Assembly: GCA_037444125.1 (NCBI GenBank) | Contig: JBBINA010000003.1 | Location: 3,167-67,166, forward strand | Direction: 5' to 3' | Source of the DNA: a bacterium | Lineage (GTDB): Bacteria > Patescibacteriota > Minisyncoccia > JBBINA01 | DNA: 64,000 nt | In this document: one piece after another, positions 7,777-36,046 of the stretch | Layout: each line of letters starts with the position of its first letter | Position numbering within the stretch: position 1 is the stretch's first letter | Notes under the pieces: generated by a model | What the model saw: only the letters and a program-made list of their open reading frames with translations | Told to the model about the DNA's origin: nothing | Databases searched by the model: none | Made by a program: the position numbers and the translations under genes

Positions 7777-7804
7777 TTGAATTCTTAAATTCATATCGTA
7801 TAAT
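7777..7804 (+). promoter_or_regulatory. Sigma-70-like promoter TTGAAT-N16-TATAAT upstream of yraN
   Basis: -35 TTGAAT at 7777-7782 and -10 TATAAT at 7799-7804, about 16 nt before the start codon at 7821. Confidence 0.4.
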
Positions 7805-12981: not shown

Positions 12982-13986
12982 GTGCAAAACAACTATAAAA
13001 TTATAAAAATATCGCAACTCAAAAAGTTTTTATGGTTTTTTTTCTTCTATATTATTATATTGTCACTACCTAAAATAGGTAAAGCGCAACTTAGCTTAAA
13101 CTGCACAGGTAGTTGCATCAAAGGTAGTGATTGTTCAATTTCTTTATCATTTACTTGTCCTGCAGGTATTCCACCTGGCACTAACTGTTTAGTAACAGGC
13201 AATATGCCACCAATCGGATCAAATGCTCAATGTGGGGCAGGCGGAATAGGAAGCGGCACAGTTATGTTCAGCGGCAGCAGTTATCCTGCCTCGGGACAAT
13301 TCGAAGTAAACCTAACATGCCTTGGCAGACATGATAACTGCGCTATCCCTATCCAAAGTACACCAGGCAACAATAATAATAGCATATGTGAACCCGGCGA
13401 ATCTGGCCTACCTGACTGTGACGGCAACTGTGATCCAACAACTGAATGCGATTCATCTGACTGCGCCGACAACGCTCTTTGCAATTCTGGTGGGTGCAGT
13501 GCTGATGGTAATTGTAATACCGGTTGCGCAGGGGCAGGATTTGCTGATCCTGACTGTACAATGCTGCCATCTGACTTACCACCTGCCGGGCCAAGTGGTA
13601 AGATATGTGCCGGGGTGCCCCCACCACCATCAAATCCAAAACTATGCGAAAACATAGTTCGTTGCGGCGGCTGTTGGGAACCACCCTGCAATCTATGTCA
13701 CATCTTTGAAACCATCAGCAATATTATAAATTGCATCTTGAGATTAGCGTTCCTTATAGGCGCAGTCTTAATTGTCTTTGGAGGTATGTTAATTCTTCTT
13801 TCAGGTTTTTATCCAAATCTTCGCCAACAAGGCAAAACAATTTTTACAGCTGTTATTTACGGCCTAATTATTGCTATGTTATCTTATATCATTGTTTTTA
13901 CTATTGTTTCGCTTTTTGCCCAAAATATGGCCGACTTCAGTTTCTCAGCCAGTGGCTTTAGTTTTACCTGCCAAGCTTATCAATAA
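12982..13986 (+). CDS. cysteine-rich secreted protein with a C-terminal two-helix pilin-like module (putative adhesin/minor pilin)
   Basis: 334 aa. Signal peptide, then roughly 220 aa rich in Cys (about 27), Gly and Pro with CxxxC/CxGxC spacing. The C-terminal segment IINCILRLAFLIGAVLIVFGGMLILLSGFYPNLRQQGKTIFTAVIYGLIIAMLSYIIVF aligns with the conserved module of the five downstream small proteins. Local GC is above 50% against a background near 30%. Confidence 0.6.
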   Translation: MQNNYKIIKISQLKKFLWFFFFYIIILSLPKIGKAQLSLNCTGSCIKGSDCSISLSFTCPAGIPPGTNCLVTGNMPPIGSNAQCGAGGIGSGTVMFSGSSYPASGQFEVNLTCLGRHDNCAIPIQSTPGNNNNSICEPGESGLPDCDGNCDPTTECDSSDCADNALCNSGGCSADGNCNTGCAGAGFADPDCTMLPSDLPPAGPSGKICAGVPPPPSNPKLCENIVRCGGCWEPPCNLCHIFETISNIINCILRLAFLIGAVLIVFGGMLILLSGFYPNLRQQGKTIFTAVIYGLIIAMLSYIIVFTIVSLFAQNMADFSFSASGFSFTCQAYQ

Positions 13987-13995
13987 AATAAATCT

Positions 13996-14370
13996 TTGAA
14001 GCGAAGAAAAAACATAATCCCAAAACTTATATACTACATAATAGCGTTAATAACAGTTTTGCCTACAACAGCAACAGCGCAACCAACAGACTGTCTTGGC
14101 GGATGTCCCTTACCGCAGTATAGCATTTTTGACAGCATTGAAAGTTTTTTAGATAAAGTAGCCTGGTTTGTTGCTTCAGTGGCTTTTCCGATCGCCGGCA
14201 TTGCTCTAATCTGGGCAGGCATCAAGTTTCTTTTGGCCAGAGGCGACGAAATGCAACTAAGGGAAGCTAAAGAAAATCTCAGATGGGCAATAATAGGGAC
14301 ATTCATTGCTCTAGGTGCCTATGTTTTCGTTAACACTATCAAAAAAGTCATTGAAACCTTTGCGCCGTAA
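13996..14370 (+). CDS. VirB2/TrbC-like pilin-family small secreted protein (paralog 1)
   Basis: 124 aa (TTG start). Signal peptide, a Cys pair (DCLGGCP), hydrophobic helix, loop AGIKFLLARGDEMQLREAKENLRWAIIG, then a second hydrophobic helix. Confidence 0.6.
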   Translation: MKRRKNIIPKLIYYIIALITVLPTTATAQPTDCLGGCPLPQYSIFDSIESFLDKVAWFVASVAFPIAGIALIWAGIKFLLARGDEMQLREAKENLRWAIIGTFIALGAYVFVNTIKKVIETFAP

Positions 14371-14397
14371 ATAAAATTAAATTAAATATTAAATTAA

Positions 14398-14775
14398 ATG
14401 AAAAAACTAATACTGAAATTAACAATAGTAACAACAAGCGTCTTTGTCTTCTTTTTTTGTGTTAGTCCAACGGTTCTTACACAAAATCTCATCACTAATG
14501 TGATTGATATTACATCTCCAACAGGTCAAAGAACCATTATTGAAATCCTTAAAGAGGTTTTAAATTGGATAGTTTTATTAGGTCTACCAATTACTGGAGC
14601 CTTTCTGATTCTTGCCGGCATCAAGTTTTTAACTGCTCACGGAGACGAAAGCCAAATTCGCGATGCCAAACGAATGTTAGTCTATACAATCGTCGGTGGA
14701 GCCATAGTTTTAGCCGCCTTTATTATTGTCAACACAATACGGGAAATTCTAATTAGAAAAGGGCTATTCATTTAA
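14398..14775 (+). CDS. VirB2/TrbC-like pilin-family small secreted protein (paralog 2)
   Basis: 125 aa with the same architecture. Loop is LAGIKFLTAHGDESQIRDAKRMLVYTIVG. Confidence 0.6.
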   Translation: MKKLILKLTIVTTSVFVFFFCVSPTVLTQNLITNVIDITSPTGQRTIIEILKEVLNWIVLLGLPITGAFLILAGIKFLTAHGDESQIRDAKRMLVYTIVGGAIVLAAFIIVNTIREILIRKGLFI

Positions 14776-14798
14776 TAATTTTAGGCTAAAATAATATT

Positions 14799-15206
14799 AT
14801 GCTGAAAAAATTTTTTACAATACTAACGGTAATTTTTCTCTTATTGAATATAATACTCTTTGCCCTGCGTTCTTATGCCTTTGACGCTAATATTTTGGTA
14901 AATCCGCCTAACCAGCTTAATAATATGTATCCCTCCAATCAAATGCAGGCAGGAGAAATTCTTGAATTTATCATTGCCATCAGGAATTTTATTTTATTTC
15001 TCGGTGTGGCACTTTTTATAATTTTTGTGGTTATTGCCGGCATTAAATATATGGGCTCCGGTGGAGACGAGGCTAAAATAGAAGAAGCCAGAAAAAATCT
15101 TATATACGCCATTGTGGGTGGCATTATAACTTTCAGCGCTTTTATCATAATGCAGGCAATTATAAGCTTCATTAAACAATCAATTGATTTTAATTCTCTA
15201 TTCTAA
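14799..15206 (+). CDS. VirB2/TrbC-like pilin-family small secreted protein (paralog 3)
   Basis: 135 aa with the same architecture. Loop is IAGIKYMGSGGDEAKIEEARKNLIYAIVG. Confidence 0.6.
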   Translation: MLKKFFTILTVIFLLLNIILFALRSYAFDANILVNPPNQLNNMYPSNQMQAGEILEFIIAIRNFILFLGVALFIIFVVIAGIKYMGSGGDEAKIEEARKNLIYAIVGGIITFSAFIIMQAIISFIKQSIDFNSLF

Positions 15207-15217: not shown

Positions 15218-15245
15218 TTGACATCTGGTTTACAATCCCTAAAAT
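15218..15245 (+). promoter_or_regulatory. Near-consensus sigma-70 promoter TTGACA-N16-TAAAAT inside the pilin array, upstream of paralog 4
   Basis: -35 TTGACA at 15218-15223 and -10 TAAAAT at 15240-15245. A strong SD AAGGGGGTG sits 8 nt before the ATG at 15332. Confidence 0.45.
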
Positions 15246-15331
15246 AAAAGTTAAGCTAATAAAAAACAGTTAGCAAAGATTAAATATATTAAATAAATAA
15301 AAATATTTAAGAGAAAGGGGGTGAAAAAATA

Positions 15332-15769
15332 ATGATAACCAAACTAAGTTTAAATGCTAAAAAACTTGTGGGTTTAATGTTTTTAGGACTTATGGTAGTA
15401 GGAGCGCTGGCTGGATTTTATGGCAACACGGACGCCCAGTGGAACCCAAACTATATAGGTTGGCCCGGCAATACTCTCAATAACTTTTATCCAACTACTT
15501 CGGTGGACGTGGCAGATATACTAATGATGATTATCGGTATAAGAAACTTTATCTTATTCTTAGGCATAGTGCTTGGTATTATATTCTTAGTATTAGGAGG
15601 GATAAACTATATGAGATCCGGAGGTGATGAGGCTAAAATGGCAACAGCCAGGGCGCAAATTATAGGTGGCATCATTGGTCTCGCTGTGGCAGTAGCCGCA
15701 TTCGTTTTATTGTCCGCCATAGTTGATTTTGTGGAAAAATCAGGGCAAGGAATAACAGAATTACAATAA
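15332..15769 (+). CDS. VirB2/TrbC-like pilin-family small secreted protein (paralog 4), a candidate major subunit
   Basis: 145 aa with the same architecture. Loop is LGGINYMRSGGDEAKMATARAQIIGGIIG. It is the only array member with its own consensus promoter, a strong SD and an immediate terminator. Confidence 0.6.
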   Translation: MITKLSLNAKKLVGLMFLGLMVVGALAGFYGNTDAQWNPNYIGWPGNTLNNFYPTTSVDVADILMMIIGIRNFILFLGIVLGIIFLVLGGINYMRSGGDEAKMATARAQIIGGIIGLAVAVAAFVLLSAIVDFVEKSGQGITELQ

Positions 15770-15788
15770 AAATAATATAAAAATAAAA

Positions 15789-15826
15789 AGAGAGGGTAAG
15801 GGTTTCGCACCTCTCTTTTTATTTTT
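15789..15826 (+). terminator. Rho-independent terminator after pilin paralog 4
   Basis: Hairpin AGAGAGG...CCTCTCT (7-bp stem) followed by TTTTTATTTTTT. Confidence 0.55.
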
Positions 15827-15860
15827 TATAAAATTATAAAAAATAATCTCACTAAATAGC

Positions 15861-15888
15861 TTGAAAACAGAAAATTAAAAAATATAAT
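15861..15888 (+). promoter_or_regulatory. Sigma-70-like promoter TTGAAA-N16-TATAAT ending 6 nt before the start codon of paralog 5 (a leaderless mRNA is predicted)
   Basis: -35 at 15861-15866 and -10 at 15883-15888, with the ATG at 15895. There is no room for a Shine-Dalgarno. Confidence 0.4.
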
Positions 15889-15894
15889 TAAATT

Positions 15895-16257
15895 ATGGAA
15901 AACCTACTGGATTTAATAATAACTAAAATCGTTTTTGCGCAAGCTGGAAACGTCCTCTGCCCCAGCGGCGTAGCTAACGGCCTTGTGCCATGCGATCCCT
16001 GGGCACCAGAAGATATCCTTATTTTCTTTATTTCTGTCAGAGATTTTCTGCTGGCCGTAGGTTTAGTTTTAATAATTATTTTTTTGGTTTTAAGCGGGAT
16101 AAAATTTTTAACTTCCCGAGGCAACGAAAGTCAGGTTGAAGAAGCGCGGAAAATGCTTATTTGGTCAATTGTCGGTGCGATTGTCTTAATCGGTGCTTTT
16201 GTTATCCTGCAAATGATAATTGGGATCCTACGGGATAAAGGGTTCAAAATATTCTAA
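15895..16257 (+). CDS. VirB2/TrbC-like pilin-family small secreted protein (paralog 5)
   Basis: 120 aa. Signal peptide, Cys pair (CPSGVANGLVPCDP), then the module LSGIKFLTSRGNESQVEEARKMLIWSIVG between two hydrophobic helices. Confidence 0.6.
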   Translation: MENLLDLIITKIVFAQAGNVLCPSGVANGLVPCDPWAPEDILIFFISVRDFLLAVGLVLIIIFLVLSGIKFLTSRGNESQVEEARKMLIWSIVGAIVLIGAFVILQMIIGILRDKGFKIF

Positions 16258-16262: not shown

Positions 16263-17888
16263 CTAAAGACGATACACAGTAATTTCTTCAAAATAAGAAT
16301 CTTCGTATACTTTTTTTAATTCCGGACTTTGTCTAATCAAATAATCAAAATTGTAATTTTTTTGAATTTTTTTTAAATTATACCTATCAACGACTAAAAA
16401 CTTAGCGTTAAATTCTTCTTTTAAAAGCTTATACAGGGCGTTATCGCTTTTATCGTAGCAAGCAAGCTTTTCGCCGCATTTTGACGCATATCTATCACAA
16501 ATCGCGCCTAGCCTTATCAAATTATCATAGTAGAAAAACTTTCTCGGATTATAGGGCAATATTGAATTACCATTAAGACCAACGACATAGTAATTATGAG
16601 TATTGTAATAAAAAAAGTAAGGGAAGATATCCCAACGGTCTAAAAAAACAAGATCACCGGGTTCCGAATTGTGCTTTAAAAACATAGCCGCGCCATAAAA
16701 CCGGGACAACGAAAAAGCTTGCCTATCAAAATGTCTTGCTTCACTTAACCATATTAACAAAACAATCGATAAGGTAAACGCCGCTACTATAATTACTGAC
16801 AAATAATACAGGGAGCGTCTTATCAACAACCTTGACTCTCTATTTAACAAACGATTAAAAAGTCTAAAATTTATATTTTCAGGCAAAAAAATATGAAAAC
16901 AAGCCACAAGAAAAAGAAAAATCAAGGGAACGCTATATTCAACAAATCGCTGAGACAAGAAAGTTAAAAACACAAAAAAAACTGAGCTTAGCCATAGAAA
17001 AAACCATTGAGAACACTGGCGATTTTTCTTTTGTTGGATTTCCTGATATAAAAAAAAGAAGCCAAAGCTTAAAATCACCAGATAACCAATCAAAATATAA
17101 AATAGATGCCTATCACTAAAGTAGGGAGAAGTCCACTCAATACTAACAGGAAAAGCAAAATTAATGATTGGGTTGGTATAAATCGCCTGCGAATTTAAAA
17201 TATTATTTGGAAAATATGGATTAAGAATTATACCCCACACTATACCAGAAATAACGCACAAAAACGGCTTTAAATCAAGCGCTTTATCAACAATTAACCG
17301 ACTTAAGAAATATAAAAAAGCAAGTATTACTAAAATTACATAACCATCATAAGCCCAGACAAAGAAAAAGCTGGTCATAAAAAGAAACCAATTTCTTCTA
17401 AGTAAAAGCGCATAAAGCCCGGTTAAAAAAAACAGAACAGCAAAAGCAATAGCTCTAACATTTTGAAACCTACTCATAAAATACGAAGCAAGCGGAAACA
17501 AAAAAAATAGTAAAAAAAATATAAAATGATGATCTCTTCGAATATGTTTAATAATAAGATATAAAATGCCCAAAATAAACCCAACTACAAGGGACTGTAG
17601 AAGTTTAGTGCCGTTTAAATCACCAAAAACTTTAACAAACGGGATAAGCACTACTGACCACAGAAAGTGTATACCCGGAAAATCCTTGCGCCAGCTAGTA
17701 TGATAAAGCCAAGGCATTTCTTTTATAAATCCTTTATCAGCATATATATGAGACATAGCAATGTAAAAATAACTGTCATTATCATTAATTTCATAAATAA
17801 TCTGAAATCCCAAAAACCAAACTAGCGAAACAAGCAGAAAGACAAACAAAAAACCGTGTTTTTTTATTCTTTGGCTTACAAAAGTCAT
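16263..17888 (-). CDS. polytopic membrane protein, putative GT-C-fold glycosyltransferase (ArnT/PMT-like)
   Basis: 541 aa and more than 10 predicted TM helices. Acidic first-loop motif INDNDSYFYIAMSHIY and a shared VWAYDGY motif. It is a paralog of the next gene. Confidence 0.45.
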   Translation of the reverse strand: MTFVSQRIKKHGFLFVFLLVSLVWFLGFQIIYEINDNDSYFYIAMSHIYADKGFIKEMPWLYHTSWRKDFPGIHFLWSVVLIPFVKVFGDLNGTKLLQSLVVGFILGILYLIIKHIRRDHHFIFFLLFFLFPLASYFMSRFQNVRAIAFAVLFFLTGLYALLLRRNWFLFMTSFFFVWAYDGYVILVILAFLYFLSRLIVDKALDLKPFLCVISGIVWGIILNPYFPNNILNSQAIYTNPIINFAFPVSIEWTSPYFSDRHLFYILIGYLVILSFGFFFLYQEIQQKKNRQCSQWFFLWLSSVFFVFLTFLSQRFVEYSVPLIFLFLVACFHIFLPENINFRLFNRLLNRESRLLIRRSLYYLSVIIVAAFTLSIVLLIWLSEARHFDRQAFSLSRFYGAAMFLKHNSEPGDLVFLDRWDIFPYFFYYNTHNYYVVGLNGNSILPYNPRKFFYYDNLIRLGAICDRYASKCGEKLACYDKSDNALYKLLKEEFNAKFLVVDRYNLKKIQKNYNFDYLIRQSPELKKVYEDSYFEEITVYRL

Positions 17889-19444
17889 TAAATTAAAACT
17901 TTAAAAAGATAGACCCCCTTGTTGTAACCAAAACCTTCATATATTTTGCCAAAATAAGGCGAGCGATTCAAAACATTAAATACATTAAATATGGGACGAT
18001 AAATATCTTCACCCCAAAACAAATCAATAAAAACAACCTTAGAACCAAAAATTTCTTTTATTGCTTTGGCGTATTTTTTATCTAGATAATAGTCACAGTA
18101 TTTAATTTCTTTTAAACATCGCTCTTCTTCGCAATAAATCATACCTCTATTGATTATTTCATAAATAAAATCCCTTTGTGGGTCGTATGTTTTCATAAAC
18201 TGCCGACCAAGGCCTGCCACATAATAATTATAATCATTAGCGTAAAATAAAGTCGGAAAAGACGACCAGTTTATATTAAAAATAATTTCTCCTTTAACTG
18301 TATGCTGCTTTAGAAATTGGCTTACGGCTTCGTATCTTGAAATTTTGGGTTGGCTGACAAAATATGAATTTAACTCTTTGAAATTAAATAAAAAACTTAA
18401 AACTAAATATGCGCTCCCAGCAAAAACAAAAACTTTTTTTTGTTTAAGAGGAAAATTCTTTAATTCAACTAATAATTTTTTATAAAAGGAGGCAAAAAAA
18501 ATTAAAGCAAATGGCAAAAGATAATCAATAAAACGCGCAAAAAAGAGATAAAAAACTGAAAAAATCAAGAAAACATATAATTGAAAATTGTTATAAAGCC
18601 TATTATTTTTCTGGCGTAAAAACGCCCAAAATGCCAAAATCAAAGCAAGCAAAAAATAAGCCACAATGCTTTCATGACCCCAGGGCCAAAATTCTATCCT
18701 CGGCGGAAGCCACTCTACACTAAGTGGCATATATAAAGCCTTAATTGGATTAACAATCGTAATATGCATAAACAAAATATTATTCGGAAAAAACGGGTTA
18801 ATAATTAATCCCCATAATATTCCGGATAGGCTATATAGGAAAGGCTTAAAATTCAACTTTCGCCCGCTGATAAAATTATAAATGCTCCAAAGGATCACTA
18901 AAACAAGCGATAAAAAATAACCATCATAAGCCCAGACAAAGAAAAAATTAACCAACCACAGCCAAAGATGTTTTTCTTTTAACAAAAAATAAAAAACCAG
19001 CAATAAGAAAAGCAATGAAAAAGTCAACGGCCTTATATTTAGCATTCGCCACAAGAAAGGTGTAGGCGCAGCATATAATATAAAAACAAAAAAACTTGCC
19101 GTTTTATTATTTAACTTAAAAAGATTTCGAAAAATAAAAAAAAGAGAAAAACTACTTAAAGCAAGAATAAGAGACTGATATATTTTAGCAGCCAAAAGAT
19201 CGTTTTCTATAAACCTGACAAACGGAAACATTAAAAACCAATAAAGAAAATGGTGCCCAGTAAAATTCTCTCGATAAATCGAATAATAGAGCCAAGGCAA
19301 TTTTTGAAAAAACCCGCCTTCACTAAATAATTGGGCAAGTTTAATATAAAAATAATTATCATCAAATGCCGCCAAAACAGGATAAAGACTAAGTAATAAT
19401 ACGCTAAAACTGAAGGAAACGGCAAAAACCCAAAAATAAATCAT
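17888..19444 (-). CDS. polytopic membrane protein, putative GT-C-fold glycosyltransferase (paralog of 16263-17888)
   Basis: 518 aa. First-loop motif AAFDDNYFYIKLAQLF (DD/DE-type as in ArnT/PMT) and the shared VWAYDGY motif. Confidence 0.45.
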   Translation of the reverse strand: MIYFWVFAVSFSFSVLLLSLYPVLAAFDDNYFYIKLAQLFSEGGFFQKLPWLYYSIYRENFTGHHFLYWFLMFPFVRFIENDLLAAKIYQSLILALSSFSLFFIFRNLFKLNNKTASFFVFILYAAPTPFLWRMLNIRPLTFSLLFLLLVFYFLLKEKHLWLWLVNFFFVWAYDGYFLSLVLVILWSIYNFISGRKLNFKPFLYSLSGILWGLIINPFFPNNILFMHITIVNPIKALYMPLSVEWLPPRIEFWPWGHESIVAYFLLALILAFWAFLRQKNNRLYNNFQLYVFLIFSVFYLFFARFIDYLLPFALIFFASFYKKLLVELKNFPLKQKKVFVFAGSAYLVLSFLFNFKELNSYFVSQPKISRYEAVSQFLKQHTVKGEIIFNINWSSFPTLFYANDYNYYVAGLGRQFMKTYDPQRDFIYEIINRGMIYCEEERCLKEIKYCDYYLDKKYAKAIKEIFGSKVVFIDLFWGEDIYRPIFNVFNVLNRSPYFGKIYEGFGYNKGVYLFKVLI

Positions 19445-20127
19445 CTAATTCCCAAAAAGTATAAATATAGTCTAGCTAGATGCATAAGATATCTTAAAAA
19501 TTCCCTTGTGTTTAATTTTGACGAGCCACGCTTACGATTCTTAAATACATACGGCACCTCGTCATATTTTTTATATTTACCCTTGACTAAAATTTCAATT
19601 AATATTTTATAGCCTATTGGGCTCAGTTTGATTCCCTCGATAACCGAGCGTCGTATAACGAAAAATCCAGACATAGGATCAGTACACTTACCAACTAAAG
19701 GTCTTGCCATAATCTCGCCCAGACGAGAAACTAATCTACGATGAAAAGGCCAGTCTTCAACTCTGCCACCAGCCTTTCGCCGTGTACCTACAACTAAATC
19801 GCATCCCTCCTTCTCAATCCTTGCCAAAAATTTGGGCAAAAATTCCGGCGGGTGACTCAAATCGCCATCCATAATGACAATAATCTTTCCTTGTGATTTT
19901 TTGAAACCATAAATAACCGAGTTCGAAAGATCGTATGAAACCTGATAAAATTTAACTGGATATATACGGGTTAACTTTTGGACGATACTTTTTGTGTTAT
20001 CAGCAGAAAACTTATCAATAATCAAAATTTCATAAGACTTTCCTCTTAAGGTCCTATCTAGACGTTTTATTAATTCTTTTAAATTCCTACCTTCATTTAA
20101 GGTTGGTACAACAATTGATAAACTCAT
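19441..20127 (-). CDS. GT2-family glycosyltransferase, polyprenyl-phosphate sugar synthase (Dpm1/GtrB-like)
   Basis: 228 aa: LSIVVPTLNEGRNL...IIDKFSADNT...VIMDGDLSHPPEF, i.e. DxD plus the GT-A fold. No C-terminal TM. Confidence 0.7.
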   Translation of the reverse strand: MSLSIVVPTLNEGRNLKELIKRLDRTLRGKSYEILIIDKFSADNTKSIVQKLTRIYPVKFYQVSYDLSNSVIYGFKKSQGKIIVIMDGDLSHPPEFLPKFLARIEKEGCDLVVGTRRKAGGRVEDWPFHRRLVSRLGEIMARPLVGKCTDPMSGFFVIRRSVIEGIKLSPIGYKILIEILVKGKYKKYDEVPYVFKNRKRGSSKLNTREFLRYLMHLARLYLYFLGIR

Positions 20128-21416
20128 GATGCCGTCCTTAAATTTCCTTTAAAAATATAAGCAATAATTATAATCTGAACTATATAGTAAAAATGGTTAA
20201 GATGGAAATAGCGGGAAAAAAATAAGAAAGTAAAAGTTAGTAAAGCATAAACCATCAAAAAAGCACTTAATGATCTCTCCCTTTGTAAATAAATATAGCC
20301 TACTATAAAAATAGGTAAACCAAACAATAACTGCAATATCCAGAACGGAAAATAAGCAAAAATGTCTTTTACAAAACCAAAATAATATAAATAAGAAGCA
20401 AATCCTATTCCCCTAACTCCACCTAAAGGATATGGCGATAACGAAGTTCCGCTGCCATAATTCCAAATGTCATCAATAAAATCACCTGCCGAAAAAATAA
20501 AGAACGGAAAAATTACCACGCCCGCAACCACTAACGCAGGCATTAGTTCGTATAAACTTCGACGAAATAATAACATTAAGTTTGCTCCACCCTTTTTCCA
20601 ATCTCTAAAACGATACAAAAAATACAATGGCAATAAAAGCCAAGTAGTCTGCTTGCTAGCATACAAAAAACTCATAAAAATAGAGGATAAAATTGTTTTT
20701 CTTCTAATTAAAAAATATAGGAAAAACAGCAATAATGCAATAATTATTACATCATTATATCCATAAATTAAACCGTTTAAAAAAAACGGATTGGCGAATA
20801 AAATCAACCCTACCATCTTTCTCGGGTTATCAATGGTAACATTATTTAAAATTAGCATCGATAATATAAAAGCTATCACATGAATTAATCTAAAATCAAA
20901 CCAACTAAAAAGCCAATAACTCAATAAATAAAATGGAACAGAGATAACTAAAAAAAATGGAAGATATATATAATGATATAGTGCTGGATTTTCTATTATT
21001 TGACCATTAAGCAAAGGTCCTATATAGCCATAGTTCCAACTTGCCAATTCGGTATCTAAATAGTTCTCTCGATATGGATTTTTGTTTTTCAACAAAAAAG
21101 AAACCGCAGCTTCGGTTTGAATTACGCTATCATGGGTATAACGTAATTCTCCCTTTACTCTTAAAAATAAATTTATAACTAGGATTGGTAAAAAAAGAAC
21201 TACTAATATTATCCCCAATAATATTTTTTTAAAAAAATATGAATTTATGTTGAGGCGGTATGAAATAAACACATAACCTAAAAAAAACAACAATGCTAAT
21301 GTTGTTAATCCAAATATTATTAGCTGACCACGCAAACTTCCAAAATATAGGCTCAGATACCTTTCGGTTGTAAAAAAATATGCAAAAAAGTATGCAACTA
21401 GTAGTAATATATCCAT
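20124..21416 (-). CDS. polytopic membrane protein, putative GT-C-like glycosyltransferase (GT87/DUF2029-like)
   Basis: 430 aa, about 11 TM helices, aromatic-rich loops. Family assignment is tentative. Confidence 0.35.
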   Translation of the reverse strand: MDILLLVAYFFAYFFTTERYLSLYFGSLRGQLIIFGLTTLALLFFLGYVFISYRLNINSYFFKKILLGIILVVLFLPILVINLFLRVKGELRYTHDSVIQTEAAVSFLLKNKNPYRENYLDTELASWNYGYIGPLLNGQIIENPALYHYIYLPFFLVISVPFYLLSYWLFSWFDFRLIHVIAFILSMLILNNVTIDNPRKMVGLILFANPFFLNGLIYGYNDVIIIALLLFFLYFLIRRKTILSSIFMSFLYASKQTTWLLLPLYFLYRFRDWKKGGANLMLLFRRSLYELMPALVVAGVVIFPFFIFSAGDFIDDIWNYGSGTSLSPYPLGGVRGIGFASYLYYFGFVKDIFAYFPFWILQLLFGLPIFIVGYIYLQRERSLSAFLMVYALLTFTFLFFSRYFHLNHFYYIVQIIIIAYIFKGNLRTAS

Positions 21417-21426
21417 ATAATATTAC

Positions 21427-22155
21427 TCACTTTAAAAATCTAAACTTTAAAAGCGTATAAACCGCTTTGAAACCCTGATACCACCTTAACTTCTTTCCCT
21501 CCTGAAAACCTCTGGGCAGATAACTAATAGGTACTTCTGTAATTTTTATTCCTTTTCTTAATATTTTTGCTGTAATTTCCTCGCAAAACTCAAAACCGTT
21601 ATGCTCTAAAGTAATATTGGCCAAAACCTTCCTTCTAAATACTTTATAACCGGTACTAATGTCACTTAAATAACTTCGGTATAAGATATTTCCAGCCAAA
21701 GTCACTAAACGTCCTCCATAATAATAAAATGGTGTAAATTTAGGATTCCGAATATTCAATATCCTTGAACCATATACAACTTCACTTTTACCTTCTAAAA
21801 TTGGCTTAAGCAAAAAAGGATAATCTTTAGGATTGTATTCAAGATCGGCATCCTGAATAATCACTATATCACCCGTTGCCATACTCAAACCAGTTCTAAT
21901 CGCTGCCCCCTTACCTTGGTTTTTAAGATGTCTCTTAACCTTAATAATAAAATAAGGATTAATTGGCAAACTGCGAATATATTTATTCAAATAAAAATAG
22001 GTGCCGTCTGTAGAACAATCGTCAATTACGATAATTTCTTTTGCTATATCATAAAGTGAAACCTTTATAACTCTATCTAACACTAATCTAATGGTTTTAC
22101 GCTCGTTAAAACAAGGAATGATGATAGATAACTTAATAAGTTTATTGCTGGACAT
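21427..22155 (-). CDS. GT2-family glycosyltransferase (Dpm1-like)
   Basis: 242 aa: LSIIIPCFNERKTI...VIDDCSTDGT...QDADLEYNPKDYP. Confidence 0.7.
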   Translation of the reverse strand: MSSNKLIKLSIIIPCFNERKTIRLVLDRVIKVSLYDIAKEIIVIDDCSTDGTYFYLNKYIRSLPINPYFIIKVKRHLKNQGKGAAIRTGLSMATGDIVIIQDADLEYNPKDYPFLLKPILEGKSEVVYGSRILNIRNPKFTPFYYYGGRLVTLAGNILYRSYLSDISTGYKVFRRKVLANITLEHNGFEFCEEITAKILRKGIKITEVPISYLPRGFQEGKKLRWYQGFKAVYTLLKFRFLK

Positions 22156-23503
22156 AGTTGTAAAAATATTTTTCCTTTATAGTTTTAAGAAGTTTAAAAA
22201 TTAATATGGCTGGCAAAATTATATAAAAAACAGTAAAACCTACAGAATTAAACATTGGATAGGCAATGAGGGCGGTTATAGTAAGTAGAAACAGCTCATC
22301 GCTCTTTTGCAAAAAAATCAAAAAGGGAACAAGCCATAGAGAATCCCATTGCCTAACATTAATCTGAAATAAAATTATAAACATAACTAACGCAAGCAAT
22401 CCCTTCATCAAGAATGTCTTTTTGCTGTTTATTAGATTTATAAGATAACCAATAAAAAACAATGGTCTAAAAATAAAACGCGACAAGTAAGAAACTATAA
22501 AAAATAAAGTTAGTCTATCCTTAATTGTCTCTACAAATGGTATATAGAATATATTAGCGTAAGGCAATAAAAATATTTGGGATTGGAGAAATAAGCTTTT
22601 AAATGTTGTCCTTCCTGCCCAAATATCTTTATAGGCGAAGTAAACAATTAAAAACCCCAGTAACAAATTAACCAACAAAAATTGTATCTTACGCGCTAAG
22701 GTTTTTATTTTTTTAACAAGCTCGACCAAAGCAATTGGCACTAATAAAAAATATACATACTTAACTAGCCCTGAAACTATCAACAAAGGTATTACCAAAT
22801 ATCTTTTCCGATAAACAAAAAAGTAAATTCCCAAAATACCAAAAAATATCATCAGGTAATCGTTATGGGCATTATTAATAAATTCAATTAATATCCAAGG
22901 ATTAAATGCATATAGATAAGTTGCTTGAATCTCGCAGCCGGGCGCCAACTTTTTAACAACTAAATAAACTAACACTACGCTCAAGGTATTTATTAAGAAA
23001 GCGAACATTTTAAACACTATCATTGTGTATTGCGGAAATGAAGCAGACGATTTAGTCAGAAAATGCCCCACCCAGTACCACACTGGCCCATAATGATTCT
23101 CTTGGTTCCTCCACTCGCTCTGCTTAGTAAACATATCATCTGGATATTGAAATGGTGCAACTTTATAAGAATTTTCGTGGTATATCGAGCTTAACCTGCC
23201 CAAAGCAATAACTCTATAAACATCATTGGAAAAAAAAGGCGGTATAAAAACTAAAATTAAAGAGACCAGACAATAAGTCATTGCCAGCTTTGTTTTGTTT
23301 TTTTTAAGAAACTCGGCTCTGTAATAATAAACAATATAGATTACGACAATAAAAATTACAATTGCTAATAACTGCCAAACCCTAAAGTTATCATCAAAAA
23401 TATATACAGGCACCTTTAAACTTACGCGTGAATAACCAAAGTAGTAAAAACCGAGCATAAAGCAAAAACCAATATAAGATAAAACAAAAACAAACAATAG
23501 CAT
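22142..23503 (-). CDS. polytopic membrane protein, putative GT-C-like glycosyltransferase
   Basis: 453 aa with many TM helices. It sits inside the glycosylation island. Confidence 0.35.
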   Translation of the reverse strand: MLLFVFVLSYIGFCFMLGFYYFGYSRVSLKVPVYIFDDNFRVWQLLAIVIFIVVIYIVYYYRAEFLKKNKTKLAMTYCLVSLILVFIPPFFSNDVYRVIALGRLSSIYHENSYKVAPFQYPDDMFTKQSEWRNQENHYGPVWYWVGHFLTKSSASFPQYTMIVFKMFAFLINTLSVVLVYLVVKKLAPGCEIQATYLYAFNPWILIEFINNAHNDYLMIFFGILGIYFFVYRKRYLVIPLLIVSGLVKYVYFLLVPIALVELVKKIKTLARKIQFLLVNLLLGFLIVYFAYKDIWAGRTTFKSLFLQSQIFLLPYANIFYIPFVETIKDRLTLFFIVSYLSRFIFRPLFFIGYLINLINSKKTFLMKGLLALVMFIILFQINVRQWDSLWLVPFLIFLQKSDELFLLTITALIAYPMFNSVGFTVFYIILPAILIFKLLKTIKEKYFYNYVQQ

Positions 23504-23575
23504 ATTAATTATTCCAAGATCTTAAAACTTAAAATAATAAATAAACAAAAACATTTTTAAAAACAACTTATAAAA

Positions 23576-25319
23576 CTAATCTGTCCGTAATATTTTTCTA
23601 AACTCGTCTTCGTAAACAACCGGGAACTGCTCTTCAAAGAAGAAACGAACCATCTCTGGGAAAACAAGTTCTTTACAAAAAAATCTGTCATGCACATCGA
23701 GCTTGTAGATAATAACAAATTTAATCTTATATTTAATAAGAAATTCTTTTAACTCGTCAATTGACGGCGCATCAGTTCCTGGATTTGTCTGACAAGAAAA
23801 GAAAGGCCTCACATTATCTTCAAATAAATAGTTTATAAATTTTCTACTTTGATATACACGGATATTTATTAATCCTCCGATCAGCTTTCTTCCGTGAAGA
23901 GTCTGGTCATAAAGATGCAGACCTGACATAACTGGTCCCAACGGTAAATTCATAACAGCAAAGTCGCTGGTATCTTTTTGCCATTGATAAAAAATAGGTG
24001 GAACCCTAATGTCAAATCTGCCATAAGGATATATTGCTCTTTCAAAAATCAAACCAGCAAGTAATAAAACAACACTAACCCATCTAAATTTTATTTTTGA
24101 AAATGCTAAAGATAGAATGATCGCAAGAATTAAAACCGGAAAAATTGCGAATCTAGTCGCAAAACGCAACTGATTAAAGGGGGGAATATACATAAGTATA
24201 GCCATAAGGTAAGATAACTTTTTTCTCCATACCGAGTGACGCTCCTAAAACCGCTTCGTCTTCGGTCGGCTCAAACATATATAGAATAGGTCCTAAGGAT
24301 AAAACTAAAAAAACGGCACCAATAATTATGAGTTTCTTATATTTTACCGCCGCCTCATAACCCAACTTAAAGATTCTCGCCCGCCACAAAAACAGAAAAA
24401 TAAATCCCAACTCAATATAACCAAAAAAAACACTTGCGCCTTCTGTAGAGGCATAGTGACCTATAATTGGTATCTGTTTTAAAAACTTGCTCAGCCACTC
24501 CATATTCATCTCCATGTTCATATTCCTAGGGCTAACAAAGGAAAAAACGCGCGCGGCACCTGATGTTTGTTCCCAAAAAGAAAAACGAGGAACAAATAGC
24601 TCATAACCAAAAAAGAAGAACATAAACACCAAAACGCCACCATAGATACCTAAAGCCACTTTTAAAAGCTGCCGACTACCAAATACCAAACTAAACACAA
24701 AAAGTAGCAAGATGCTATAAAAAAAATAAATATAGGATGATAGAACCGCCAATAAAAGTCCACTTAAGATTTTTACCAGACTCCAGATGTTTGGCTTTTC
24801 TTTATACTGAAAACAAAACATTAGTATCAAAGGTAAGCTGAAACCGGCCAAAAGATTCAAATATTTATCACCGCGGGAAATAAAATAAGGGGAAAATGCG
24901 TAAATTGCGCTACCAATAAACGAGGCCAAGGGTTTATGATGGAAATATCTTCGCAATACATAGAAAAGCGTCGTGCCGTTTAAAGCAAAAAATAGCAGAA
25001 TAACAATATTGTTTATAAAAATACCGTTAGTAAAACTTCCAAATAAATAATAAATAATAATATATAGATAACTATCTATCGAGGTTGTCATGTCAACACC
25101 CCTGGGATACCATAAAAGATCAGTAGTCAACCTAAAATTACCGTCAACAACGCCCTTCATAAACCAACCCACCCAAGTCATTCCTAAAGCATCACGTAAT
25201 GAATTTGATGTATTAAAATTAAAGTAAGGTGTCGCTATCGGCGTGCCAAGTGCTAAATAAAATAAAAACGCCCAGATGATTTCTATATTTTTTATTATTT
25301 TATCTTTAATTTCGAACAT
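23576..25319 (-). pseudogene. Frameshifted paralog of the 597-aa membrane protein at 27626-29419 (two ORFs, 24174-25319 and 23576-24205)
   Basis: The upstream ORF ends ...VILPYGYTYVYSPL* and the downstream ORF begins MAILMYIPPF.. in a different frame. The intact paralog reads ..VPLPYFLIMYLPPF.. across the same point. The C-terminal halves also align (YDQTLHGRKLIGG vs YDQTIHNKRIVGG). This implies a 1-nt indel near 24200-24207. A G6 run lies at 24179-24184. Confidence 0.6.
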
Positions 25320-25474
25320 TATAATAAATTTGCTTTTGAAGCGTAATATCTTTTCAACCTTGAGTGGTGCTCTTAAAGGTAGATGTAGATAATCTTAAGG
25401 TTTTTAGCATATAAATTGTCGAAATCGCCAATAATTAAAAATTCTTATCAACAGAGATTCCGGCATAAACAATA

Positions 25475-26104
25475 CTATTTCAGTAAAAACTTAGGAATAT
25501 TATATAACTTACAGGTTGGGACGGCTCTGAATATCAAATCATAATCTGAGGCAAAACTTAAAGATTCATTATAACCATTCAGCTTGAAATAAATATCTCT
25601 CCTGTAACACCTAACAGGATCGGCAATTGGACTAACACGAAAAATGTACTTCCTTATCGCCTCATCTGTAACAGGATAATAACGTTTGCCTAAATCTTTT
25701 CCTCTGTCATTTATGATAACAAGATATGACCCACACACACCATAGGTTGGATTTTTTTCTAAAAAATCAACTTGCTCCTTTAGACGATCCGGTTCAGCAA
25801 TATCATCACTGTCCATAATAGCTACATATTTGCCCCTTGCGAACTTTCGTATAGCATAATTACGATTTCTAAATAAACCCTGTTTTTTTTCATTATCTAT
25901 AACTATAATCCTCGAATCTTTCATCTTATAATGATTTATGATTGTCATTGTATCATCTGTAGAGCAATCATTTATTATAATAAATTCGAAATTCGTAAAA
26001 GTTTGACCTAATATACTTTCTATTGCAACACCAATATATCGCTCCGAATTATAAGCCGACATTACCACAGATACTTTCGGTTTGGCATTATTTTGCATTC
26101 CCAT
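25475..26104 (-). CDS. GT2-family glycosyltransferase
   Basis: 209 aa: VSVVMSAYNSERYI...IINDCSTDDT...AIMDSDDIAEPDRL (DxD, GT-A fold). Confidence 0.65.
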   Translation of the reverse strand: MGMQNNAKPKVSVVMSAYNSERYIGVAIESILGQTFTNFEFIIINDCSTDDTMTIINHYKMKDSRIIVIDNEKKQGLFRNRNYAIRKFARGKYVAIMDSDDIAEPDRLKEQVDFLEKNPTYGVCGSYLVIINDRGKDLGKRYYPVTDEAIRKYIFRVSPIADPVRCYRRDIYFKLNGYNESLSFASDYDLIFRAVPTCKLYNIPKFLLK

Positions 26105-26121
26105 ATTTATGTTTATCTTAT

Positions 26122-27666
26122 TTACTGTAACATATTTTCATCAATACTTTCTCTTTTTAAAATAACTCCAGCTGAATTTTTTGAAAAAACCCTAAACTCG
26201 TTTGAAATGATTATCTTATCCAAACTACGTTCAAGCCATGGCTTATCCTTTTCAAGATACAAAATATACTCAACATCACTAAATACCGGCAACTGAGCAA
26301 GATGTTGCCTTTTAAACAAATGGGGCAACGAATAAACATAGGCAGCAACTGAGACATCCTGTGGAATACGGCTAATTAAGTTTATTGTTTCGTTTCTACG
26401 ATAATCAGTAAATCGTTCGTGCCACCGCTGATATGATGCCACGGGCATATAATATATAAAATTAAAAAAAACGACTGCAATTAAGCTGTATATAAACCCA
26501 AAGGTAACAATATTAACCCTAGTAAATTTACTAATCAAGAAGTTTTTGGCGGCTAAAATACTAATTATCCCCAAAGGCAAATAGGAAAGATTGTAATGAA
26601 ACCATGCAAGATGGCTATAATAAAAAATGTTACTAACCAACAACCTTTCTGCAATCGGTAAGACAAACAGCAAAATCCCGGGGGTAAAAACAGCCGGCAT
26701 AAAAGTGCCGACATTAAAAAAAATATTAGCATATTTCAAGGCATTAAAACCATTTAAGCATATAAATGATGATAACTTGCCTTGAAGAAATCTTTCCCAA
26801 GATTCTTTATAAAATGAAAAGTAAAAATAACTATCCTGTAAAAAATGAGGTATAACTATTTTAATAACTGTTATAAAGACAATGATACTGATAAAAACCG
26901 TAGCTAAGCCATGTTTTAAAAAAGTTCGTCTATCATAAATAATCAAAAATAAACCAAAAGCTGATAGATGAAGAATAAAATTCTCCTTTATCGTCATAAC
27001 TAAAATTGCCACGAGCCAATAAAATAACCACTTGCGGGTTATAGCAAAATAAAAAAGACTTAAGAGTAAAAAGGGATAAAAACTGTCCTGGGTAAAATCA
27101 TAAAGAGCAGCTGATTGTAAACCAGGATATAAAATATAAGTTAAACCAATCAATAGGGTATAAAATGATTGAATCTTAAGATGTCGAGCAATATAGTAAA
27201 GTGGAATAACGCCTAACAAAAGCAGCGTCACCTGGCCATAAATCAATGTTTCTGCCTCGGGCCAAAGCTTGAAAAAAGGTATGAATATCCAAATAATTGG
27301 ATTGAAGTGATTACCAAACTCATTTATAAGAACTTTGTTTCCGCTATCAATGGTTATTATAGGACTTCCCGTAGTTACCAAGTTCCATAATAAGTTCAGG
27401 GTATTAGCCAAATCTTGGGTGCTGAAAAAATTATAGTGACGATGTAGCGCAAGCGATGAATAATAAAAAAATAAGCAAATAACTAATATCGAAAGTATTA
27501 TCTTGGTTAAATGATAGCTTAGGTATTGTCCGGTCATATCAGAAAGTTTCTTGATAAATCCCTTTCTATGGGAATAAACGCTCAGAACACCACTTATTGA
27601 CAAGATTAAAATAATTTTAAACAAATCAGTCATAATGTTTTGGTAAGTTTCCGACTGAATACACAC
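26122..27666 (-). CDS. polytopic membrane protein, putative GT-C-like glycosyltransferase
   Basis: 514 aa with more than 10 TM helices. It overlaps the next gene by 41 nt. Confidence 0.35.
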   Translation of the reverse strand: MCIQSETYQNIMTDLFKIILILSISGVLSVYSHRKGFIKKLSDMTGQYLSYHLTKIILSILVICLFFYYSSLALHRHYNFFSTQDLANTLNLLWNLVTTGSPIITIDSGNKVLINEFGNHFNPIIWIFIPFFKLWPEAETLIYGQVTLLLLGVIPLYYIARHLKIQSFYTLLIGLTYILYPGLQSAALYDFTQDSFYPFLLLSLFYFAITRKWLFYWLVAILVMTIKENFILHLSAFGLFLIIYDRRTFLKHGLATVFISIIVFITVIKIVIPHFLQDSYFYFSFYKESWERFLQGKLSSFICLNGFNALKYANIFFNVGTFMPAVFTPGILLFVLPIAERLLVSNIFYYSHLAWFHYNLSYLPLGIISILAAKNFLISKFTRVNIVTFGFIYSLIAVVFFNFIYYMPVASYQRWHERFTDYRRNETINLISRIPQDVSVAAYVYSLPHLFKRQHLAQLPVFSDVEYILYLEKDKPWLERSLDKIIISNEFRVFSKNSAGVILKRESIDENMLQ

Positions 27667-29419: not shown

Positions 29420-29627
29420 GTTAGCTGAATAAACTTTAATTTAAGTTTATTTTTTCACCTGGGTTTGTTTAATATTCTGACAAGATAAAAAAATGATACC
29501 AGTAGCCTATAATATAATCTGAAGAATTTTATATCTCTTGTCTGAAACTTGGTAACACATAATAAAAATTTAAATGGAGTATTATGCACTAAAACAATCA
29601 TCTCTAAACTACTAAAGTTTTAAAGGA

Positions 29628-34889: not shown

Positions 34890-34918
34890 TTGACAACTTT
34901 GAATTTGTTTCTTATTAT
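34890..34918 (+). promoter_or_regulatory. Near-consensus sigma-70 promoter TTGACA-N17-TATTAT upstream of the sigma-r4 domain gene
   Basis: -35 at 34890-34895 and -10 at 34913-34918, with the gene start at 34977. Confidence 0.45.
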
Positions 34919-36020: not shown

Positions 36021-36046
36021 TTTTATTCAGTTTATTCTTAATATAA

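Follow-up and report, generated by a model that had tools for sequence, protein, structure and literature searches.

Predicted nested expression units and a candidate major pilin gene in a VirB2-like array of a patescibacterium

A tandem array of six VirB2-like pilin genes would, under the reading that we favor with moderate confidence, be expressed as three nested units, with one gene, paralog 4, as the strongly expressed candidate major pilin and the following gene, paralog 5, translated from a leaderless or near-leaderless mRNA. The array is located in a 64,000-nt contig stretch (hereafter, the window) from an uncultured, ultra-small CPR/Patescibacteria bacterium, probably a member of Microgenomates. 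The motifs behind this reading are real: both promoters, the Shine-Dalgarno sequence (SD) and the terminator were found, by direct reading of the sequence, where the first-pass annotation had placed them; the interpretation of these motifs in terms of expression is plausible.

Composition and genomic context of the array

The array consists of six members rather than the five pilin paralogs originally listed. The proteins are indeed pilin-like and, judging by their profile matches, are VirB2/TrbC-like type IV secretion system (T4SS) pilins (Pfam PF18895), not components of type IV pili.

12982-13986, forward strand: array member 1, 334 aa; N-terminal domain rich in Cys, C-terminal domain T4SS_pilin-like
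13996-14370, forward strand: paralog 1, 124 aa, TTG start; VirB2/TrbC-like pilin
14398-14775, forward strand: paralog 2, 125 aa; VirB2-like pilin (PF18895, 44.3 bits)
14799-15206, forward strand: paralog 3, 135 aa; VirB2-like pilin (PF18895, 39.6 bits)
15332-15769, forward strand: paralog 4 (array member 5), 145 aa (PF18895, 27.5 bits)
15895-16257, forward strand: paralog 5 (array member 6), 120 aa (PF18895, 33.9 bits)

Profile HMM scores for paralogs 1-5 (27.5-48.6 bits) all exceed the PF18895 gathering cutoff of 26.6 bits; paralog 1 (48.6 bits) also matches PF04956 above the threshold (46.5 bits). Array member 1, with 25.5 bits, falls slightly below the cutoff; it is 68% identical to its orthologue in a close relative, L005. 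The nearest paralogue of paralog 4 is paralog 3 (47.5% identity). In the alignment, all members share the layout of a small protein in which an N-terminal leader precedes a pair of hydrophobic helices with a short polar loop between them. In paralog 4, the helical hairpin comes after a long signal peptide; the AF2 model of this protein contains helices at residues 2-37, 60-95 and 100-138, with a GGDE loop in the hairpin and a hairpin pLDDT of ~88. The N-terminal leader of paralog 5 is short, weakly hydrophobic to non-hydrophobic, and ends in AQA, and this protein contains a conserved pair of cysteines. In the search for similarity to solved VirB2, TraA or TrbC pilins, a sequence profile search of the PDB found no match, and Foldseek against the PDB retrieved only non-specific helical hairpins (every E > 0.6) that provide no independent support for the VirB2 fold. 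Assignment to type IV (PilA-like) pilins was considered and rejected: the class III signal peptide with the G|F(T/S)LxE motif is absent from all translations, and there is no N_methyl Pfam match.

The neighbors of the array are gyrA, a methyltransferase gene and an SBP gene, together with genes for large membrane proteins or glycosyltransferases. Beside the array, neither VirB4 nor any other core gene of a T4SS was found; the window yielded only a T4CP-like ATPase (37488-39077), ~21 kb away. Spacers of just 9-27 nt separate members 1-4 (12982-15206), which have no promoters, SDs or terminators. Array member 1 starts 15 nt past the SBP gene, with neither an SD nor a promoter; the spacers upstream of paralogs 1, 2 and 3 are 9, 27 and 23 nt long, respectively, all without an SD and, for paralog 2, likewise without a promoter, and no terminator follows paralog 3.

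Expression signals of paralog 4

15218-15245, forward strand: predicted sigma-70-type promoter of paralog 4 (TTGACA at 15218-15223, N16, TAAAAT at 15240-15245; 11/12 match)
15246-15331, forward strand: predicted 5' leader of paralog 4, A/U-rich, ~80 nt, with the SD near its 3' end
15315-15323, forward strand: SD of paralog 4, AAGGGGGTG, followed by 8 nt and the ATG at 15332
15776-15830 (about), forward strand: predicted intrinsic terminator with an A-tract, a GC-rich stem and a U-tract (core 15786-15822)

The transcription start site (TSS) of paralog 4 is predicted at ~15252. Because the -10 hexamer ends 86 nt upstream of the ATG, the leader proper would be ~80 nt long. The SD yields a duplex energy of -18.0 kcal/mol, compared to at least -2.4 kcal/mol for every other gene of the array. 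Strong SDs are rare in this genomic region: only 8 of the 60 genes in the window have one at or below -10 kcal/mol, leaving ~87% without an SD, and the two strongest, those of the HU gene (-18.2 kcal/mol) and paralog 4, are tied. The rarity of SDs, together with the parity between paralog 4 and HU at the top of the range, fits high expression of paralog 4.

The hairpin of the terminator begins 7 nt past the stop codon of paralog 4, with the GC-rich core ~20 nt downstream and the U-tract TTTTTATTTTTT at 15817-15828. Its minimum free energy (MFE) is -20.1 kcal/mol (z = -5.1), and none of 200 shuffled sequences folds equally well, in agreement with the original description of a strong terminator directly after paralog 4. 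An automated terminator scan missed this element because its loop exceeds the 8-nt limit of the scan. No terminators were found behind the other array genes; the intergenic terminators of the window follow few genes besides paralog 4, namely HU, PPDK and those at 30682-32034 and 44496-45113, each of which has its own SD. Thus, as first proposed, paralog 4 is the only array member that combines all three signals: the other members have SD energies of at least -2.4 kcal/mol and no terminators, and, apart from paralog 5, none of them has a promoter of at least 10/12.

The claim that paralog 4 forms its own transcription unit holds in part. The promoter and the terminator are both present and conserved (see below), but no terminator lies between the stop codon of paralog 3 (15206) and the promoter (15218), so that read-through from the upstream genes is expected. 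Paralog 4 is thus uninsulated on its upstream side and not a fully separate unit. A regulatory RNA in the leader was also considered and rejected: there is no Rfam match above the threshold, all sub-threshold matches fall on the terminator, no conserved or unusually stable structure was detected, and the leader length varies from ~33 to 95 nt.

The promoter and start codon of paralog 5

15861-15888, forward strand: predicted promoter of paralog 5 (TTGAAA at 15861-15866, N16, TATAAT at 15883-15888; 11/12 match)

A 6-nt discriminator, TAAATT, separates the -10 hexamer from the ATG at 15895, so that the predicted +1 coincides with the first letter of this codon. The start codon is fixed because an in-frame TAA precedes it (15889-15891) and there is no alternative start before codon 31; the N-terminus also aligns with those of the orthologues. 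The first 50 nt of the gene are unstructured. Paralog 5 lacks a terminator, and the convergent gene behind it ends at a distance of 5 nt. Paralogs 1 (with its TTG start) and 3 are also preceded by -10-like hexamers with a 6-nt gap, but these were rejected as additional leaderless promoters since they have no -35 element and are not conserved in L001 or L005.

Conservation in close relatives

The conservation footprint covers three lineages, L001, L003 and L005, the only related ones found: when paralog 5 and the neighboring 541-aa protein served as homology queries, no further lineages with long contigs were detected (the 541-aa protein gave the same three relatives), a scan of metagenome contigs found no others, and a scan of genome contigs added a single distant Shapirobacteria locus. 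The database entry P0001, identical to paralog 4, led to a strain with 99.9% identity, which is uninformative for conservation.

All six array members are one-to-one orthologous across the close lineages, and their order is kept. Orthologues share 60-86% identity in L005 and 52-60% in L001, compared to 30-47% among the paralogues of the array, and this combination of one-to-one orthology with greater similarity between orthologues than between paralogues argues for fixed, specialized roles. Conservation is not highest for paralog 4 itself, whose orthologues are 56-67% identical: its identity to the L005 orthologue is 64%, compared to 86% for paralog 1.

Promoter hexamers in the relatives were located by a direct scan of the sequences. 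For paralog 4, the comparison covers the three lineages with spacer sequence, that is, the window, L001 and L005, in which TTGACA-N16-TAAAAT is identical (5871-5898 in L001 and 6464-6491 in L005). Unlike the hexamers, the spacer is only ~50% identical, and the gaps between the -10 hexamer and the ATG are 86, 102 and 40 nt, respectively; the hexamers and their spacing are invariant even though the neighboring 541-aa protein is just 50-68% identical across the relatives. The SD of paralog 4, GGAGGTGA, is conserved in L001, L003 and L005, and all three carry equivalent terminator hairpins with unrelated stems in the same position (-24.8, -18.5 and -24.8 kcal/mol, respectively). The paralog 5 promoter is conserved in all four lineages in the form TTGnnn-N16-TAnAAT (10/12 in L005 and L003, 8/12 in L001). 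Its -10 hexamer is separated from the ATG by 6 nt in the window and by 7 nt in L001 (with the weak 8/12 promoter); the distance grows to 21 nt for L005 and 25 nt for L003, whose orthologues have no SD.

Distant arrays of Microgenomates

Among the distant Microgenomates, four arrays of the Shapirobacteria/Woesebacteria type (L010-L013) contain, as the fifth gene, the closest homologue of paralog 4. In three of these (L010-L012), the fifth gene is followed by a terminator, the TATAAT-N6-ATG arrangement and a sixth pilin gene; in L013, the terminator behind the fifth gene is kept, and the next gene is a duplicate of the fifth one, without TATAAT-N6-ATG. Across L011-L013, a -10 hexamer exactly 6 nt upstream of the ATG is present at 10 of the 36 genes (Poisson P ~1e-7, with the counts non-independent given that the loci are orthologous). 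The literature searched contains no reports of leaderless mRNAs or TSS data for Microgenomates. We suggest, tentatively and with more doubt than confidence, that the VirB2-like arrays of Microgenomates share an ancient three-part expression layout, in which genes 1-4 form an operon, gene 5 is separately promoted and terminated, and gene 6 is leaderless, right after the terminator. Such a layout would fix the stoichiometry, with gene 5 encoding the shaft pilin and the other genes minor or tip pilins, and leaderless initiation would be common in Shapirobacteria/Woesebacteria-type members of the CPR.

Is paralog 5 leaderless?

The suggestion that paralog 5 is leaderless, made in the first-pass annotation, finds support in the TATAAT-N6-ATG geometry and in the conservation of the promoter, but of the three close relatives, only one retains the short gap. 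The rather unlikely alternative is that transcription starts a few nucleotides upstream, or that paralog 5 is mostly expressed by read-through from paralog 4; initiation would then be SD-independent and S1-assisted on an A/U-rich leader, and the 6-nt gap would be the end of a continuum, without regulatory meaning. Such an interpretation is compatible with the SD-less majority of genes in the window, where a multi-domain S1 protein is encoded (410-1462), with the typical distances there of 16-58 nt from the -10 hexamer to the ATG (promoter-to-ATG gaps of 16-50 nt are the usual case), and with the long gaps upstream of the SD-less orthologues in L005 and L003. Moreover, a gap of exactly 6 nt is found at 4 of the 60 window genes and is not enriched (P = 0.10). 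The lack of an SD at paralog 5 is itself uninformative because it is shared with ~87% of the genes.

Several observations nevertheless argue against a start further upstream. By the geometry of the promoter, +1 would coincide with the first letter of the start codon, and shuffled versions of the paralog 5 spacer combine a match of at least 11/12 and a 5-8-nt gap with P = 1.5e-4. The gap in L001 is nearly the same, at 7 nt, and the same arrangement lies directly past the terminator at the sixth gene of L010-L012, in distant loci where the 6-nt gap is enriched. Read-through from paralog 4 is, furthermore, opposed by the strong-looking terminator upstream of paralog 5. Since SD-less short leaders are the norm here, leaderless initiation, even if it occurs, may carry no special regulatory meaning.

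The -10 element of leaderless mRNAs in Actinobacteria, Deinococcus and archaea, TANNNT, is located ~6-7 nt before the AUG; Cortes et al. 2013 is cited on this subject in PMC12641261. Paralog 5 resembles these mRNAs in the 6-nt distance between its -10 hexamer and the AUG, in the missing SD and in the unstructured 5' coding region. Unlike the known leaderless groups, paralog 5 is an isolated case in the window, and its leaderless status is a prediction.

A model of array expression

Under the model that we favor, the first unit comprises members 1-4, which probably share a transcript with the gyrA-methyltransferase-SBP genes that precede them. The second unit would arise as member 5 (paralog 4) gains its own near-consensus sigma-70 promoter, a leader, a strong SD and an efficient-looking terminator. 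Given the promoter, SD and terminator, the mRNA and protein output of paralog 4 should far exceed that of its neighbors, the pattern expected of a shaft (major) pilin; we infer, from these expression signals only, that paralog 4 is the major subunit. The third unit, member 6 (paralog 5), would be re-initiated just past the terminator from its own promoter. Because only 6 nt lie between the -10 hexamer and the ATG, its mRNA should start on the AUG or no more than 1-2 nt from it, so that translation would be leaderless or nearly so. The sequences show that the motifs exist, are non-random and are conserved; how active the promoters are, where transcription starts, how efficiently it terminates, how abundant the products are relative to one another and which pilins are major or minor are inferred.

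The same signals could conceivably let the cell switch from one pilin to another depending on conditions or host, with paralogs 4 and 5 independently regulated and without a fixed stoichiometry of major and minor subunits, a scenario that we consider improbable. Three separate promoter contexts within one array would suit such switching, the virB2 paralogues of Anaplasma provide a precedent (PMC2527338), and the survey of T4SS in Patescibacteria suggests a possible role of the arrays in adapting to different hosts (PMC12102498). However, both promoters are near-consensus and of the housekeeping type, no conserved operator-like element was detected between the hexamers or in the leader, and no regulator gene is adjacent to the array; the one-to-one orthology and the kept order also fit obligatory specialized subunits better than interchangeable variants.

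The third alternative, chance matches in intergenic DNA with 20% GC content and an array transcribed as one read-through operon, would account for the frequent -10-like hexamers upstream of genes and for the number of 9/12 promoter-like matches across the region (35, compared to 36.2 +/- 6.5 in shuffles). At higher stringency, the picture changes: 11/12 matches are rare (10 on both strands of the 64 kb, that is, in 128 kb) and clustered upstream of genes, with 8 of the 10 located just upstream in the right orientation, and the two array promoters are the top two matches within 11-20 kb. With 20,000 dinucleotide shuffles per 125-nt spacer, the probability of a match of at least 11/12 is 0.0025 for paralog 4 and 0.00095 for paralog 5. 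The promoter motifs are statistically non-random and not chance products of AT-rich DNA, and, considering also that the paralog 4 hexamers and their spacing are identical across three diverged lineages and that the terminators are kept in four lineages despite their differing stem sequences, the chance explanation is extremely improbable.

Relation to known systems and implications

VirB2-like pilin arrays are widespread in Patescibacteria and especially common in Microgenomatia, with 2-11 genes each and ~25% mean identity (Quinonero-Coronel et al. 2025, PMC12102498). In Ca. Southlakia epibionticum, the one species tested, the VirB2-like array is essential (Wang et al. 2023, PMC10633639). The present array is similar in consisting of tandem, small, divergent PF18895/PF04956 proteins, here with six members. 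Many pilin genes of Patescibacteria are located away from virB4 whereas others often adjoin it (PMC12102498); unlike in many of those arrays, no VirB4 was found near the present one. The papers on Patescibacteria arrays describe gene content and leave aside the internal architecture of transcription and translation and the extent to which it is conserved, which are the points of interest here.

Several tandem VirB2 paralogues that do not form one uniform operon (in the present case, by prediction) are also a feature of the Anaplasmataceae virB2 clusters. In A. phagocytophilum, 6 of the 8 virB2 paralogues are transcribed in a host-cell-specific manner (Nelson et al. 2008, PMC2527338). The host-cell-dependent expression in Anaplasma has been measured, and some of the paralogues there are recent duplicates, up to 93% identical (PMC2527338), whereas the present paralogues are old and one-to-one orthologous, and their expression is predicted.

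In type IV pilus systems with pilA and in archaeal flagellin and pilin arrays, the major-pilin gene has its own promoter and terminator. The present array is comparable in that one subunit gene combines strong signals with a terminator, for a predicted high ratio of major to minor subunits, but the proteins belong to a different family, without class III signal peptides and with matches to T4SS pilin models.

Because the signals described here are textbook elements, the advance is, as it stands, incremental, and with patescibacterial VirB2 arrays already published, the novelty is modest. With the conserved promoter, the rare strong SD and the terminator at one fixed position, a specific gene can be put forward, and tested, as the possible source of the major pilin, and the conserved separate unit of the last gene makes that gene a candidate for a differently dosed minor subunit. 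Beyond the array, the many start codons that a -10 hexamer precedes at a distance of exactly 6 nt in loci of related Microgenomates, along with the scarcity of SDs here, could matter for gene calling and start annotation in CPR bins.

Conserved array of T4SS pilin-like genes

All five small ORFs of the array (paralogs 1-5) passed the threshold of the Pfam T4SS_pilin family (PF18895), and paralog 1 additionally scored above the threshold for TrbC/VirB2. The first array gene, upstream of the small ORFs, encodes a 334-aa protein (12982-13986) in which a signal peptide precedes an N-terminal Cys-rich domain of some 200 aa; its C-terminal T4SS_pilin-like helical hairpin scores slightly below the PF18895 threshold. 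The protein is 68% identical in the related locus L005, is present only in a shorter version (154 aa) in L001, and may represent a fusion of a pilin module with an adhesin or tip subunit. None of the array translations contains a class III signal peptide of type IV pilins. In the AF2 model of paralog 4, a helical hairpin comes after the signal helix; PDB searches by sequence and by fold yielded no specific match. Judging from its genomic context and from distant homologs that carry names (Woesebacteria and Shapirobacteria MAG proteins and one Shapirobacteria contig), the array probably belongs to a CPR/Patescibacteria bacterium of the Microgenomates group.

Apart from a 99.9% identical strain (L007), the syntenic locus was found in three related lineages only, namely L005/L006/L009, L001/L002/L008 and L003, in which the 541-aa neighbor is 68%, 50% and 49% identical to that in the window, respectively. 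The array members are collinear and one-to-one orthologous across the lineages, with ortholog identities of 60-86% (L005) and 52-60% (L001) versus 30-47% among the paralogs, indicating that the paralogs are ancient and that each has been retained.

Paralog 4 cassette

Read directly from the sequence, the promoter, Shine-Dalgarno (SD) and terminator of paralog 4 and the promoter of paralog 5 all lie where the first-pass annotation had placed them:

15218-15223 and 15240-15245, + strand: paralog 4 promoter, TTGACA-N16-TAAAAT
15315-15323, + strand: paralog 4 SD, AAGGGGGTG, 8 nt before the ATG at 15332
15332-15769, + strand: paralog 4 coding sequence
~15776-15830, + strand: paralog 4 terminator, a hairpin with A-tract, GC stem and U-tract (MFE -20.1 kcal/mol, z = -5.1)
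15861-15866 and 15883-15888, + strand: paralog 5 promoter, TTGAAA-N16-TATAAT, followed by TAAATT and the ATG at 15895

The paralog 4 promoter hexamers and their spacing are identical in L001 and L005 (the L003 contig stops short of this region and is outside the comparison); only about half of the positions in the 16-nt spacer match, and the -10 hexamer lies 86, 102 and 40 nt from the start codon in the window, L001 and L005, respectively. The SD GGAGGTGA is present in every lineage compared. No shuffled sequence out of 200 folded as well as the terminator, and a terminator follows the paralog 4 ortholog in all four lineages (MFE -18.5 to -24.8 kcal/mol) despite unrelated stem sequences, a hallmark of selection for structure. 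The leader showed no conserved fold across the lineages and no Rfam match. The description of paralog 4 as a transcription unit of its own holds in part: with no terminator between the paralog 3 stop (15206) and the promoter (15218), the unit would be a nested one, open to read-through from the genes before it. The four preceding array genes are separated by 9-27 nt spacers with no promoter, SD or terminator, and are probably read from a transcript that begins further upstream; among + strand promoters matching the sigma-70 hexamers at 10/12 or better, the nearest is at 7777-7804.

Even with a generous choice of starts, only 8 of the 60 window genes have an SD of -10 kcal/mol or stronger, the strongest being those of HU (-18.2 kcal/mol) and paralog 4 (-18.0 kcal/mol). 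Examples of SD-bearing genes are HU (2686-2958), 39559-39840, 30682-32034, 53947-56334 and 44496-45113; the genes for ribosomal proteins L21, L25, S6 and S1 and for GAPDH lack an SD. The genes with an intergenic terminator behind them come from this small set, and each has an SD of its own (HU, PPDK, 30682-32034 and 44496-45113). Together with the rare strong SD, this distribution supports the view that paralog 4 is geared to high output; it is a candidate for the major subunit, and we lean slightly toward its being the most abundant pilin.

A paralog-4-like pilin, 61% identical, occurs outside any array in one lineage (L004, 5292-6480), after the rpoB-rpoC, S5 and L15 genes, where it has a promoter-like site and an SD (GAGGTGA) to itself; the 140-aa membrane protein gene before it has the full cassette of TTGACA-N16-TATAAT, SD and terminator. 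Gene-caller start errors were noted near array signals (L008 2673-3092, L005 6532, L001 5391, L003 30): the last pilin of L008 is called 17 codons too long, back through the terminator hairpin, and the paralog-4-like genes of L005, L001 and L003 are called from a GTG within the SD GGAGGTGA.

Predicted leaderless or near-leaderless start of paralog 5

The paralog 5 start is unambiguous, given an in-frame TAA (15889-15891) and no alternative start before codon 31, and the protein alignment shows its position to be conserved. A promoter precedes paralog 5 in every relative:

Promoters of paralog 5 and its orthologs (sequence; match to sigma-70 hexamers; gap between -10 hexamer and ATG)
Window: TTGAAA-N16-TATAAT; 11/12; 6 nt
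L005: TTGCAA-N16-TATAAT; 10/12; 21 nt
L003: TTGAAT-N16-TATAAT; 10/12; 25 nt
L001: TTGCTT-N16-TACAAT; 8/12; 7 nt

Other good promoters in the window lie 16-58 nt from the ATG; the gap-6 class comprises 4 of 60 genes, with no overall enrichment (P = 0.10). The predicted mRNA has unusually little structure in its first 50 nt. No SD was found at the paralog 5 orthologs in any relative, which is uninformative, SDs being rare in this genome. The leaderless geometry proposed previously is seen in the window, in L001 with its weaker 8/12 promoter and at the sixth gene of the distant arrays L010-L012, but not in L005 and L003, whose wider gaps fit a rival reading, a short, SD-independent leader for paralog 5. 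With modest confidence, we favor a start site at most 2 nt from the AUG in the window.

The leader peptide of this last pilin is only about 17 aa long, weakly hydrophobic and even acidic (MENLLDLIITKIVFAQA; window 15895-15950, L001 from 6520, L011 from 5410, L012 from 5445), and is followed by a conserved Cys pair, which implies export of the predicted product; the signal peptides of the other members are long. A second candidate leaderless gene in the window, a 208-aa ORF (1568-2194) with no Pfam match, is preceded by TTGCAA-N17-TAGAAT-N7-ATG (9/12; 1520-1570).

Distant arrays

The best distant homologs of paralog 4 (P0037, P0032 and P0020) each come from an array of six or seven pilin genes in which theirs is the fifth, on Shapirobacteria/Woesebacteria-type contigs (L011-L013, plus L010), and BLAST confirms that paralog 4 corresponds to gene 5. 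In these arrays, a 45-55 nt spacer lies ahead of gene 5 and a terminator behind it. Immediately after that terminator, in L010, L011 and L012, TATAAT-N6-ATG opens the sixth gene, whose product resembles paralog 5 in its Cys pair and in its short, non-hydrophobic N-terminal peptide (ending ALAQT/FAQA). L013 retains the terminator, and its next gene is a gene 5 duplicate without TATAAT-N6-ATG. A -10-like hexamer lies exactly 6 nt before the ATG in 10 of the 36 genes of L011-L013 (7 being perfect TATAAT; Poisson P ~1e-7, with the caveat that these loci are orthologous and the counts not independent). This layout and frequency make leaderless initiation credible for the clade, in particular at this array position, and suggest that leaderless mRNAs may be widespread in these CPR lineages; no mention of the pattern there was found in the literature searched. 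TATAAT/TAAAAT hexamers 6 nt (sometimes 5 or 7) before the ATG occur at many genes, both pilin and non-pilin:

L011: 2612-3496, 3613, 5410, 7147, 7582
L012: 2500-3441, 3594, 3939, 5445
L013: 19-972, 2469-3350, 3480, 3823

Genomic neighborhood

The array is flanked by gyrA-methyltransferase-SBP on one side and a convergent glycosyltransferase/large membrane protein cluster on the other, and no VirB4 was found nearby. The synteny of array and cluster is kept (window 16263-30593, - strand; L001 6885-12438; L005 7514-12441). Products of the cluster are large polytopic membrane proteins with no Pfam match (541 and 518 aa), glycosyltransferases of the GT2 and GT87 families and DUF2079, joined in relatives by YfhO; the cluster is possibly linked to surface or pilin glycosylation. 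Asn residues N40, N47, N50 and N51, in the N-terminal part of the mature protein, are invariant among paralog 4 orthologs.

A T4CP/TraG-like ATPase (37488-39077), which ends in a C-terminal zinc finger, is the one piece of T4SS-related machinery seen in the window and lies about 21 kb from the array. Its gene is the last of three behind a strong promoter, TTGACA-N17-TATTAT (34890-34918; promoter and genes together, 34890-39077), the others encoding a sigma-70 region 4 and HARE-HTH protein (34977-36020) and a 469-aa protein of unknown function.

Predicted expression architecture

We propose operon-level expression for genes 1-4. The output of gene 5 (paralog 4) would be raised by its own promoter and rare strong SD before the terminator cuts off transcription, and gene 6 (paralog 5) would be re-initiated as a leaderless or near-leaderless transcript. 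Host- or condition-specific pilin switching, as in the Anaplasma virB2 paralogs (PMC2527338), is a rival explanation. The possibility that the motifs arose by chance is essentially excluded: the paralog 4 and paralog 5 promoters are the top two matches within 11-20 kb, only ten 11/12 matches occur on both strands of the window, 8 of these directly upstream of a correctly oriented gene, and dinucleotide shuffles of each 125-nt spacer (~20% GC) gave P = 0.0025 (paralog 4) and 0.00095 (paralog 5) for a match of at least 11/12, and P = 1.5e-4 for such a match ending 5-8 nt before the ATG. The motifs are not a by-product of AT-richness, and each promoter and the terminator are very probably functional.

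VirB2 arrays are already known in Patescibacteria (441 arrays of 2-11 genes each, enriched in Microgenomatia; PMC12102498), and such an array is essential in Ca. S. epibionticum (PMC10633639). The individual elements described here are likewise all of known kinds; the novelty lies in the conserved expression layout predicted within the array.
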